From IMG/VR virus record IMGVR_UViG_3300042891_002054: a DNA stretch of 64,000 nt. One strand, written 5' to 3'. Origin of the DNA: a virus (taxonomy: Duplodnaviria > Heunggongvirae > Uroviricota > Caudoviricetes). The translations under genes and the position numbers were made by a program. The notes below the pieces were generated by a model. It had not been told where the DNA came from and did not search any database. It was given only the letters and a program-made list of their open reading frames with translations. The first letter of the stretch is position 1; the number at the start of each line of letters is the position of its first letter. Below, in pieces: positions 57,263 to 64,000 of the stretch.

Positions 57263-57270
57263 TATAAATA
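57263..57270 (+). promoter_or_regulatory. T4-type late promoter
   Basis: TATAAATA upstream of gp3. Confidence 0.75.
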
Positions 57271-61208: not shown

Positions 61209-61311
61209 TGTATGATATAGACGCAATAATTTTTCATAATATATCCAAAAATATTTAATTACAGTAACTATTTATTTTTAATATTTTAACTTAATAAGGA
61301 GGTATGTCGCT

Positions 61312-62377
61312 ATGAAAATTTGTTTCTTAGGTGACACCCATTTTCGGTGCTAGAGGTGATAGTCAACATTTCCATGAATTTTTTGATCTATTCTATACAA
61401 ATGTATTTTTTCCCTATCTTATAGAAAATAATATAAAAATTGTAATCCAATTAGGTGATATTTTTGATCGCAGAAAATATAGTAATCATTATACTTTATC
61501 TGAATCTAAACGATATTTCTTTTCTAGGTTTGGTGAACTTGGTATTGAATTAGAAACATTACTCGGTAATCACGATTTATTTTATAAAGAATCTTTATCA
61601 GTTAGTTCCAGTGAATTGTTTTTAAAACAGTTTAAAAATGTCAATGTAATAAAAAACCCAACTCAGTTAAAGAAATTTGATATTTCTGTTATCCCATGGA
61701 TATGCAAAGAAAATTATGATGACTGTTTAAAATTTATTAAAAACGACACTTCCCATATGTGCGTTGGCCACTTTGAGATTGAAGGGTTTAAAATGTATCA
61801 GAGTAGCATTTTATCTGAACATGGTTTATCTGTAAAAATGTTTTCTAATTATGAACGAGTATTGTCTGGTCATTATCATCACGCATCTAAACGTGGTAAT
61901 ATTGAATATATTGGTACTCCCTATGAAATGACTTGGCAAGATTTTGGTGATCAAAAAGGTTTTAGAGTTTACGATTTAGAAACTAGGTCTTTAGAAATTA
62001 TTGAAAATCCATATTCAATATTTTGTAAAATACTTTATGATGATTCAGGTGAAACTGATATTGTTAAATCAACATATTTAGATAAAGAATATTTAAAAAA
62101 TGTTATTGGGAAATATGTTAAGATTCAGGTAAAAAACAAAACAAATCCTTATCTATTTGATTTATTCATAGATCAAGTCTATCAACATTCCCCTATTGAT
62201 GTTTCATTAACCGAAGAAATAGTTGATATTGAAATTGAAGAAGATGTGGACGAAACAGATGATACTTTAACTATCACCTACAAATATATTGATAGTATAA
62301 ATCAACAAGAATTAGATAAAAATAAATTAAAAGGTATGATGTCTAATTTGTATAATGAAGCGATGCAGGTTGAGTAA
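61312..62377 (+). CDS. 47: recombination nuclease gp47 (Mre11-like), reading frame interrupted at codon 11
   Basis: AAGGAGG RBS then MKICFLGDTH(F) in one frame; GARGDS..., LGDIFD, GNHD, GHFE, SGHYH, Y.GTPYE.TW.D in the +1 frame. Confidence 0.9.
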
Positions 62378-62577
62378 TGGTTATTTTTGAAAAAATACGG
62401 TTTAAAAATTTTTTATCATATGGTAACACTTTTACCGAAATCCCGTTGAATGTTGAAAGAACTACCCTGTCAACTGGTGTAAATGGGCAGGGTAAATGTG
62501 TTCATCCATCAACAAAAATTGATATTATATTCGATGATCCTGCAACGGAAAAATTATTTAAAGAATTTCTTTCCTAG
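62377..62577 (+). CDS. 46: gp46 (Rad50-like) N-extein (aa 1-40) fused to a 26-aa intein N-fragment
   Basis: F..IRFKNFLSYGN...G.NG.GK is the gp46 start; the Walker A Ser is replaced by intein block A CVHPSTKI, then a stop. Confidence 0.9.
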   Translation: MVIFEKIRFKNFLSYGNTFTEIPLNVERTTLSTGVNGQGKCVHPSTKIDIIFDDPATEKLFKEFLS

Positions 62578-62590
62578 ACCATTTAATTTT

Positions 62591-62598
62591 TATAAATA
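62591..62598 (+). promoter_or_regulatory. T4-type late promoter for the endonuclease ORF
   Basis: TATAAATA about 33 nt upstream of ATG 62631. Confidence 0.7.
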
Positions 62599-62630
62599 TA
62601 ATTATAAGTTATAAATTTTATGGTAATTAT

Positions 62631-63674
62631 ATGTCCGCGTTCAAGATAGATACATGGTTAAAGAAAGGTTATACTGAGGAAGAAGCAAAATATCAAATAA
62701 AAATTAGGAGACCGTGTAATATAGAATATTATATGCATAAATTTGGGGTTGATGTTGCTGAAGCTGAAGAAATGCGAAGAGCAAATCAACAAAAAGGTGC
62801 TAAAGTTGTATCCCAAAAACCAAAAGAGCAATTTAAACTAACATCACCTAGATGCGTTGAGTATTGGGTTAATCAAGGATTTTCGGCGTTAGAAGCAAAA
62901 GAAAAAGTATCTGAAATTCAATCTACTTTTTCTTTACAGAAATGTATTGATAAATATGGTCCAATTTTAGGAGTTGAAGTGTGGCAAACAAGACAAATTT
63001 CTTGGCAAAACACTTTAAATTCGAAATCTGTAGATGATAAGAAATCTATGAATTCTAAAAAAACTACGTTAAAATTGGATATATTTACCAATAAATATGG
63101 ACATAATATAGGTAGAGAAAAATTTATAGAGTGTTTAATTGCAAAAAATTGTAAAGTTTTTTATTCTTTAAACGAGTTAGAAAATTATCTATATGATACC
63201 GTACAAGAATTTGATTTATATTTACCATTAAATTATTTTAAAAAGAAATATTTAAAACTATATTACTTTGAATTATTTGATATGCCTACCAATATTAATT
63301 TTTGGTTAACATCTATTTTTAAATTTAAATCTACAACAAATCCAATAAAATTAACTGGAAAACATGGAAATTTTTTATATTCAATGGTTGTTGGTAAAAA
63401 ACTTTTACGATCTTCTAATGAAATTTTATTCTATAACCTTTTAATAGAACATGGTTTACAGTTAGATACAGATTTTATTATAGAAAAGTATTACCCAAAT
63501 TCTAAAATGAGGTGCGATTTTTATATTATAGAAACTGATACATGGATAGAATTAGCTGGATATTTTGATGAAGAATACTTACAAAAAATGAAATATAAAG
63601 AATCTACTTTTGGTTCTATTATATTGTATGATAAAACCCAATATAAACTTTTTATTGAAAATATACAAAAATAA
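62631..63674 (+). mobile_element. free-standing putative homing endonuclease (PD-(D/E)xK/Vsr-like C-terminal domain) inside fractured gp46
   Basis: Repeats W.KKGY.EEEA, YW..QG....EA and KYG...G..; C-terminal SSNE..FY.LL...RCDFYI.....WIELAG. Confidence 0.75.
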
Positions 63675-63676
63675 TT

Positions 63677-64000
63677 ATGGAAACTACAGTTGGTGATGTT
63701 GTAAAATTTTACGAAAAATATCCTGCAATGCGCGGTAAACTTTCTGTAAAAACTCGATTTGGATATAAAATTATTGAAGGAGCAGCTTTAACTGCAAAAC
63801 ACTCTCAAGTCTTAAAATTTAAAGTTGATTCTGGAAATCAAATAAAAGTTTCCCCCGATCATTTAATGTTAAGTAATAATTGTGAATGGAAACCGAGTAA
63901 AACTTTAACTGTGGGAGATTTTCTTTTTACTGAAAATGGTCCTGTTAAAATTACTTCTATAAAAATGCTTAAATCGAAAGAAGATCTTTTCGATTTGCAA
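63677..64000 (+). CDS. 46: intein C-fragment of split gp46 (runs off the window; block G and C-extein not visible)
   Basis: Manual translation METTVGDVVKFYEKYP...VKTRFGYKII...IKVSPDHL (block B TxxH-like)...KTLTVGD...DLFDLQ (block F-like). Confidence 0.8.
   Translation, partial: METTVGDVVKFYEKYPAMRGKLSVKTRFGYKIIEGAALTAKHSQVLKFKVDSGNQIKVSPDHLMLSNNCEWKPSKTLTVGDFLFTENGPVKITSIKMLKSKEDLFDLQ

Follow-up and report, generated by a model that had tools for sequence, protein, structure and literature searches.

Results

IMG/VR virus record IMGVR_UViG_3300042891_002054 is a stretch of 64,000 nucleotides (nt; referred to here, at its full length, as the window) from an uncultured T4-like phage, and the sequencing runs that contain it are lake-water or freshwater metagenomes. 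In this study, we have analyzed the gp46 gene at its downstream end, a member of the gp46/Rad50/SbcC family that is interrupted within its Walker A motif by a cassette with the signatures of a split intein, whose N- and C-terminal fragments (IntN and IntC) flank a nuclease-like gene. The features, with the evidence for each, are as follows.

62377..62496, plus strand: N-extein of gp46, 40 amino acids (aa), ending in GVNGQGK, the first half of the Walker A motif (PHROG 77 match)
62497..62577, plus strand: IntN, 26 aa and a TAG stop, made up of CVHPSTKIDIIF and a conserved tail, DDPATEKLFKEFLS (Cys1 and block A Thr)
62591..62598, plus strand: late-promoter-like motif of the T4 type, TATAAATA, ahead of the nuclease gene
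62631..63674, plus strand: free-standing homing-endonuclease-like gene, 347 aa (fold and conserved residues)
63677..64000, plus strand: IntC, the first 108 of its 124 aa (continuation known from contig L003)
62497..64000, plus strand: putative mobile cassette of IntN, spacer, nuclease gene and IntC, 1,552 bp in all and 1,504 within the window (empty-site allele)

The first open reading frame (ORF; 62377..62577, 66 aa) consists of the 40-aa extein, 26 further residues, CVHPSTKIDIIFDDPATEKLFKEFLS, and TAG. A spacer of 53 nt separates this stop from the nuclease ORF, and the third ORF starts with an ATG at 63677, two bases past the nuclease stop, in a frame that leaves the window at its end. The initial annotation of this DNA had given the same positions for gp46-N, the 347-aa ORF and the 63677 frame with its VSPDHL and DLFDLQ segments. 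It had also named a block G His-Asn/Ser junction and the continuation of gp46 past 64000 as features to look for, and both are present in contig L003. This contig (JGI), L004 (Logan) and L005 (ENA) were found by exact-protein look-up with the 347-aa ORF; all three extend downstream of the window and they show 0 mismatches to it over 11,370, 11,370 and 4,996 bases, respectively. In L003 the frame continues as FFANGLVSHN, followed across the junction by STFIDAITFALYGKPFRK and then by the complete C-terminal part of gp46. IntC ends 48 bases (16 residues) past the window, at position 64048 by L003, and the third ORF in the recovered contigs has 657 aa, namely IntC residues 1-124 and a C-extein of 533 aa that starts with Ser. 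As contigs from three assemblers or sources match the window exactly, the layout is not an accident of assembly. The whole stretch is present in at least 10 lake-water runs, and relatives whose cassette parts are 44-76% identical have three ORFs arranged in this same way. We therefore give practically no credence to the idea that the stop codons are assembly or sequencing artefacts in a continuous gene, for which no supporting observation was made.

The host gene was annotated as gp46, and PHROG 77 (SbcC-like) matches both of its fragments: residues 1-40 of the N-fragment align with profile positions 295-333 (E 2.8e-9) and residues 125-654 of the C-fragment with positions 334-953 (E 1.7e-143). 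The two exteins adjoin in this profile between positions 333 and 334 with no residue lost or gained; splicing would therefore rebuild the Walker A motif (GxxGxGK-ST; here G-V-N-G-Q-G-K-S-T), between whose Lys and Ser the intein is inserted. The family profile, the Walker A motif and a gp47-like metallophosphatase gene directly upstream all identify the gene as gp46/Rad50/SbcC. We fetched 80 viral contigs with the C-extein; of the 78 that could be classified, 77 read G-x-x-G-x-G-K directly into S-[TSC], and the remaining one, the L001 contig, carries the intein. The N-extein is identical in amino acids to the N-terminus of an intein-less allele, L011, in which the flanks join as GQGK-STF, so that removal of the insertion restores the host motif. 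An intact gp46 elsewhere would have spoken against the reading proposed in the initial annotation; no second gp46 was found in the 64-kb window or the 10 kb downstream, the two regions that the search covered.

The intein and its split

Together, the two fragments make a mini-intein of 150 aa (IntN 26, IntC 124). The residues that mark a class 1 intein (Cys1, block B, block F Asp, block G His-Asn and a +1 Ser) are all there. Cys41 (Cys1) follows directly after GQGK, and this residue and the block A Thr are invariant in six N-fragment alleles. Among 15 C-fragment alleles, which span 48-100% identity, the S, P and H of block B (S59-P60-[DE]-H62 in IntC numbering; S-P-D-H in the window), D106 of block F, S122-H123-N124 of block G and Ser+1 (S125) are invariant. 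The intein assignment of the initial annotation is upheld. Among solved structures, IntC is closest in sequence to the Pho RadA intein (E 2.7e-7) and gp41-1, and a profile of the intein family retrieved NrdJ-1 (7e-9) as its best match, then gp41-1, RadA and VidaL. A contiguous relative, P0021 (743 aa), has this intein in unsplit form, likewise between GK and S, with no nuclease gene nearby. The structural model of its intein (predicted local distance difference test, pLDDT, 90; predicted template modeling score, pTM, 0.85) has VidaL (6vgv) as top PDB match (E 3.6e-11, template modeling score 0.72/0.84, root mean square deviation, rmsd, 2.6 A); there were 62 PDB matches at E<=0.001, and the 50 listed are all inteins or intein-like HINT domains. 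Judged from this relative's model, the intein is predicted to have the HINT fold.

The same model locates the split. In P0021 the predicted order is beta1, beta2 (residues 12-17), an extra helix (20-32), a loop (33-44, of lower confidence), a short strand and alpha1 (50-59). In the split alleles IntN ends after the extra helix and IntC starts at the short strand (M-x-T-T-V-G-D-V...), which puts the break within the loop. Position 2 of the IntC profile aligns with residue 18 of the NrdJ-1 intein (KTTIKEVVEIF), the alignment to VidaL starts at chain residue 28 (profile position 5), and IntC includes the canonical alpha1 (GDVVKFYEKY), the helix aligned with alpha1 in the RadA and NrdJ-1 inteins. 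Natural atypical splits are known at S1, after beta2 (VidaL, PolB16), and at S2, after alpha1 (AceL-TerL, GOS-TerL), with IntN lengths of 15-37 aa (PMC13014065, 2026). The gp46 intein is split at S1 and not, as AceL-TerL, at S2. The initial annotation had placed the break before the TVGDV segment, unlike that of AceL-TerL; this stands, with the refinement that the position is not new, since VidaL and PolB16 are earlier examples of S1.

A distinguishing feature of the gp46 intein is the 14-residue tail of its IntN, which has the consensus ETEKxFKxFL across alleles. In a predicted complex of the N- and C-fragments, strand pairing with IntC involves N-fragment residues 41-54, and IntC residues 11, 14, 15 and 18 on alpha1 are contacted by a helix face made up of T57/L60/F61/F64/L65. 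The complex scored 0.79 (three runs: 0.79, 0.55, 0.79) and its best control 0.00; 58 of 80 solved complexes came up to this mark, as did 2 of 110 mismatched pairs. Between runs, 77% or more of the contacts agreed, and partner pLDDT was at least 67. Because structures of split inteins have been solved, this result may mirror likeness to them and not be independent evidence. Association of the fragments, with the same proviso, would also fit a different explanation, namely that the intein halves hold the gp46 pieces together non-covalently and that these function without splicing. A precedent lies in the split NrdA of phage Aeh1, which is reported to assemble without an intein (PMC3045599). However, a HINT domain of 150 aa would then stay lodged between the Lys and the Ser of the P-loop, and the residues needed only for the chemistry (Cys1, block B His, block F Asp, terminal Asn and Ser+1) are invariant; we regard this explanation as very improbable.

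Alleles and mobility

L011 belongs to a near-identical phage (the sister phages are about 99.4% identical in DNA). Its empty site reads GGGCAGGGTAAA directly followed by TCAACATTTATT, with no difference from the filled L003 in either flank. As the empty site lies at exactly the insertion point, the cassette measures 1,552 bp. Between L011 and L003 the C-exteins differ at 9 of 1,599 nt (7 synonymous, 2 non-synonymous; 531 of 533 aa identical) and the N-exteins by one synonymous difference. In the sequencing runs, a contig of run X1 aligned with L011 has exactly 1,552 extra letters at the site, contigs of X12 and X15 have unaligned ends with the sequence of the IntN start and the IntC end, and the empty site is spanned by a 25.5-kb contig of X16. 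Filled and empty alleles in one sample were not seen in these contigs (X1, X12 and X15 filled; X16 empty). A second fractured lineage, L001, has a cassette of 1,556 bp. It too has siblings with an empty site (L016-L018), which differ from it at 3 of the 1,000 nt upstream. That near-identical phages differ by the cassette in two lineages suggests that it is mobile, or was very recently.

At L001:8373-8381 the filled allele reads TCAACG and the empty L016-L018 (4001-4009) TCAACA, a synonymous difference five bases after the insertion, beside the presumed cleavage site.

Four states of the site were found: empty (77 loci); a contiguous intein without nuclease gene (L006/L007, the P0021 allele); split with a nuclease gene (the window, L001, L002, L008, L009, L094 and the P0012 contig); and split without one (L010 with a 100-nt gap, L091 with a 22-nt gap, and L092/L093). 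In L092 (2748-3050) and L093 (2164-2466) the N-fragment consists of a 40-aa extein and a 60-aa IntN and overlaps the start of IntC, which is in another frame, by 50 nt. Contigs from two sources agree in this arrangement, which is either a split without spacer or a contiguous intein broken by a frameshift. We considered whether the 100-aa ORF of L092/L093 is a remnant of the nuclease and rejected this, as it is the N-fragment with a long tail. Both halves of the intein, with every catalytic residue, are kept in the lineages split without nuclease gene (L010, L091, L092/L093), an argument that it is trans-splicing which selection preserves. In the comparison of L003 with L001, the ratio of non-synonymous to synonymous substitution rates (dN/dS) is lowest in the C-extein (0.12), followed by IntC (0.23), the nuclease (0.27) and the short IntN (0.48), values that show purifying selection. 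In distant phages, identity is higher in IntC (50-59%) than in the C-extein (40-46%), which could reflect transfer of the intein between lineages or a fast-evolving coiled coil in gp46.

The nuclease-like protein

The AlphaFold model of the 347-aa protein (pLDDT 93) is helical over residues 1-230 and alpha/beta over 239-347, which gives a layout of a helical repeat module (about residues 1-145), a helical linker and a PD-(D/E)xK-fold domain (about 239-347). The C-terminal domain matches TnsA (Z 6.9), I-Bth0305I (3r3p, Z 6.8; residues 250-347, rmsd 3.4 A over 81 residues), Bax1 (6.6) and NGO0050 (6.6), and less well VRR-NUC (6.2), Vsr (1cw0, 5.4) and Hjc (4.5). Most of the best-scoring matches of residues 249-347 are PD-(D/E)xK-fold nucleases with Z of 4.5-7.0, values below 8 being moderate, and weak Foldseek matches (Bax1, influenza PA-N, YaeQ) also have this fold. 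Matches of the domain in AFDB are DUF559, VRR-NUC and NUMOD-type entries, and its Atlas neighbors are viral clusters with DUF559 in 75% of members (score 0.90), which we take as a lead only. PHROGs gave a weak match to "Holliday junction resolvase" over residues 249-344 (E 1e-4). Conversely, Pfam gave no match for the protein or for any of 40 aligned family members, Foldseek found no PDB match to the whole model at E<=0.001, and neither the sequence nor the family profile matched PDB sequences. The 40 members are 28-62% identical, and L259, S261, E264, Y288, D296, F297, E307, Y316 and K323 of the nuclease domain are invariant or nearly so. From its modeled fold and conserved residues, the domain is predicted to be of the PD-(D/E)xK superfamily, which is marked by an alpha-beta-beta-beta-alpha core with conserved acidic residues and a Lys, with kinship supported at superfamily level only: TnsA, Bax1 and VRR-NUC score as well as 3r3p, so that a Vsr-like fold is not singled out. 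The characterized Vsr-like homing enzymes are defined by the EDxHD composite motif with its catalytic His (PMC3239194); the 347-aa protein falls outside this motif, as the family has no conserved His and no second conserved Asp, the candidate set being E264, D296, E307 and K323.

In its N-terminal part the protein has three W/EYW-x-x-G-[YF]-[ST]-x-E-E-A repeats. The enzyme of L094 (L094:316-1392) has this module too, with 36% identity over residues 2-145 (E 2e-23), on an unrelated C-terminus; the nuclease domain has therefore been swapped, which fits a targeting module with exchangeable nuclease domains. By eye this other C-terminal domain looked GIY-YIG/T5orf172-like, and Pfam gave no confirmation. 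In an exhaustive search the nuclease family came to 1,879 cluster representatives at E<=1e-3, or 771 if E<=1e-10 is required. Many relatives (P0028, P0030, P0034 and others, 420-466 aa) have an extra 90-110 N-terminal residues without Pfam match, and others match only residues 2-145 of the 347-aa protein.

It is conceivable that the split intein works and that the 347-aa ORF is no longer an active homing endonuclease, being degenerate, domesticated or a DNA-binding or regulatory passenger. Homing cycles predict decay of the endonuclease after fixation, the gene has been lost in several lineages, and the protein has neither a curated family match nor the EDxHD motif. Against this, its frame is intact with a dN/dS of 0.27, E264, D296, E307 and K323 are conserved throughout a diverse family, and the model is confident. 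In addition, the differences between near-identical phages suggest current mobility, and the module swap in L094 is what modular homing enzymes do. On balance, loss of homing activity seems unlikely to us. The initial annotation's call of an endonuclease-like ORF is borne out for frame, fold and conserved residues, and not for a family match.

Expression signals and neighboring genes

The motif TATAAATA occurs 14 times in the 64 kb, counting both strands, where about 18 copies are expected by chance; a match in one spacer of about 50 nt is therefore roughly a 1% event. Four diverged nuclease-bearing loci (L003, L001, L008 and L009) all keep it in spacers that are otherwise unlike. A tail-tube-like gene has another copy 32 nt ahead of it, at 57263..57270. 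The ATG of IntC directly adjoins the nuclease stop or overlaps it (TAATTATG in the window, ATGA in L001 and L008), which suggests translational coupling. Sigma-70-like promoters are at chance level (25 found, 22.7 expected), and no terminator-like site was found.

The G+C content is 30.5%. The neighboring genes are T4-like (gp23, prohead protease, UvsY, UvsW, gp47, gp45 and gp44), and a peptide-deformylase-family gene lies directly after gp46 (L003:13017-13619, about 1 kb past the window end). No cultured phage with the cassette was identified, as blastn against cultured-phage records gave only weak gp47 matches, and a scan of viral contigs with the nuclease protein gave no match.

The gp47 (Mre11) gene upstream of gp46 carries a frameshift. 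At 61311-61345 it reads MKICFLGDTHF and then, in the +1 frame, GARGDSQHF..., with an extra T (CATTTTCGGT); this insertion of one base after codon 11 parts metallophosphatase motif I from the rest of the protein. In the empty-site sister L011 (2817-2860) and the X16 contig the site is CATTTC-GGT and gp47 is in a single frame. Just upstream the window phage and L011 diverge sharply, with a 131-letter replacement between a gp55-like gene and gp47, so that the frameshift lies at a recombination boundary. This raises the possibility of a decaying locus, in which the cassette would have inactivated gp46 without any splicing and the whole Mre11/Rad50 module would be on its way to being lost. The extra T in the window lineage fits such decay, as does its absence from L011 and X16. 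However, all catalytic residues of the intein and the full 533-aa C-extein are intact, dN/dS between the two fractured lineages is 0.12-0.27, and the arrangement persists where exteins are only 40-46% identical, including nuclease-less lineages with both halves. Moreover, the lineage is abundant, with its nuclease protein in 34 indexed blocks of the collection and the stretch present in at least 10 lake runs, and the gp47 site itself, UUU-CGG-U, could be a +1 slip site. We therefore consider decay improbable.

Discussion

Based on our results, the most probable state of the locus, which we hold with good though not full confidence, is a fractured gp46 gene: a class 1 mini-intein within the Walker A motif, itself split after beta2, with a free-standing homing-endonuclease gene between its halves, whose trans-splicing would give a gp46 of 573 aa. 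In this model the locus would yield three proteins: gp46(1-40)-IntN; the nuclease, expressed from a late-promoter-like site of its own; and IntC-gp46(41-573). The IntN beta-hairpin would add to the body of IntC, helped by the conserved amphipathic helix packing on IntC alpha1. The completed HINT fold would then trans-splice through the Cys1 thioester, attack by Ser+1 and cyclization of Asn, joining GQGK to STF and yielding the 573-aa gp46 with an intact P-loop. In a co-infection, the nuclease would cut intein-less gp46 near the GK/ST codons, and repair would copy the whole cassette of 1,552 bp.

Several points weigh against this model. The main caution is gp47: if its frameshift is not bypassed, the gp46/gp47 machine may be impaired regardless of gp46 splicing. 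The Pfam Intein_splicing match to the IntC piece in the window (E 2.2e-6, 28 bits) is below the curated cut-off of 35.8. The homing activity and the target site of the 347-aa protein are predictions from models and conservation, with no curated family and structural Z scores of at most 7.0. Filled and empty alleles are separated by 13 synonymous and 3 non-synonymous substitutions that are not assignable to a lineage. Finally, no RNA data are listed among the sequencing runs that contain the stretch.

Fractured genes were described by Dassa et al. (2009), with gp41, IMPDH, DnaE, NrdA, NrdJ, a ligase, a terminase and one unknown as hosts (PMC2677866). In the same study, an SbcD-like gene is reported to be interrupted by a Vsr-like gene, with no intein involved (PMC2677866). 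The words gp46, Rad50 and SbcC were not found in its text (PMC2677866), and our literature search returned no published description of a gp46 or Rad50/SbcC intein, which is not proof of absence. The layout in the window is that of these loci, especially GOS-TerL: an N-extein with IntN, a short spacer, a free-standing endonuclease gene and IntC with the C-extein, on one strand, in phage genes of DNA metabolism, the endonuclease having its own control elements. The spacer has 27-51 nt in the loci of Dassa et al. and 53 nt here, and the long IntC 122 aa in their terminase case and 124 aa here (PMC2677866). One difference is that their endonucleases are GIY-YIG or Vsr-like (EDxHD), whereas the enzyme of the window is neither by motif. 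The locus thus has the make-up of a fractured gene in the sense of Dassa et al., its nuclease being assigned as such from its predicted fold only, and it is well supported that the gp46 cassette is a new example of this rare, already described arrangement. The central points of the initial annotation, a natural split with a 26-aa IntN, a nuclease-like gene between the halves and a late-promoter motif ahead of that gene, have held up.

Among single inteins, VidaL (6vgv/6vgw) and PolB16 OarG (8cpo) resemble the gp46 intein in breaking right after beta2 and before alpha1, and VidaL also in being cysteine-dependent (Cys1) and in coming from a T4-like phage gene. The IntN is longer here (26 aa, as against 16 in VidaL and 15 in PolB16), the extra 14 residues being the conserved amphipathic helix, and VidaL differs in its host protein, is only 20% identical and contrasts with the gp46 intein in the +1 residue, which is Ser here. 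AceL-TerL (25-aa IntN) and GOS-TerL (37-aa IntN) are also natural split inteins of T4-like phages with a short IntN; they split after alpha1 (PMC13014065), which the gp46 intein has on its IntC side. The closest solved sequence to the IntC of the window is the Pho RadA intein (4e2u/4e2t), but this is contiguous, archaeal and in an unrelated host protein. For the nuclease, the nearest comparison is I-Bth0305I of the EDxHD family (3r3p; PMC3239194), with an N-terminal DNA-binding region and a C-terminal restriction-endonuclease-like domain; its family likewise occupies fractured genes. Unlike that family, the enzyme of the window lacks the conserved His and the second Asp, and it has no sequence match to 3r3p.

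The Mre11/Rad50 recombination ATPase would thus be another target of parasitism by intein and endonuclease, at its P-loop. The Pho RadA intein likewise lies in the P-loop of a recombination ATPase. Natural split inteins with short N-fragments are few (AceL-TerL, GOS-TerL, VidaL and PolB16), and they are sought by protein chemists because the short piece can be made synthetically. To these the gp46 family contributes a Cys1/Ser+1 intein that comes in 14 or more natural variants and can be compared with a contiguous relative, and the extra helix built into IntN may aid fragment capture.

A bolder proposal, which we put forward tentatively and hold to be rather doubtful, is that two things in the window are undescribed: an S1-split IntN with its own clamp helix, and the founding member of a large, unrecognized family of phage homing endonucleases. 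If so, the clamp helix could explain how a beta-hairpin of 12 residues finds its partner, and it would be transplantable to other inteins with a short IntN. The family, about 1,900 representatives without Pfam match, would combine a triple EYW-G-EEA helical targeting module with a PD-(D/E)xK domain, use E..D..E..K rather than EDxHD, and be able to recombine its module with other nuclease domains.

In conclusion, one and the same gene presents an unusually complete series of natural states (empty, contiguous, split with an endonuclease gene, and split without one), and this series makes the proposed "gene-breaking" route to split inteins testable.

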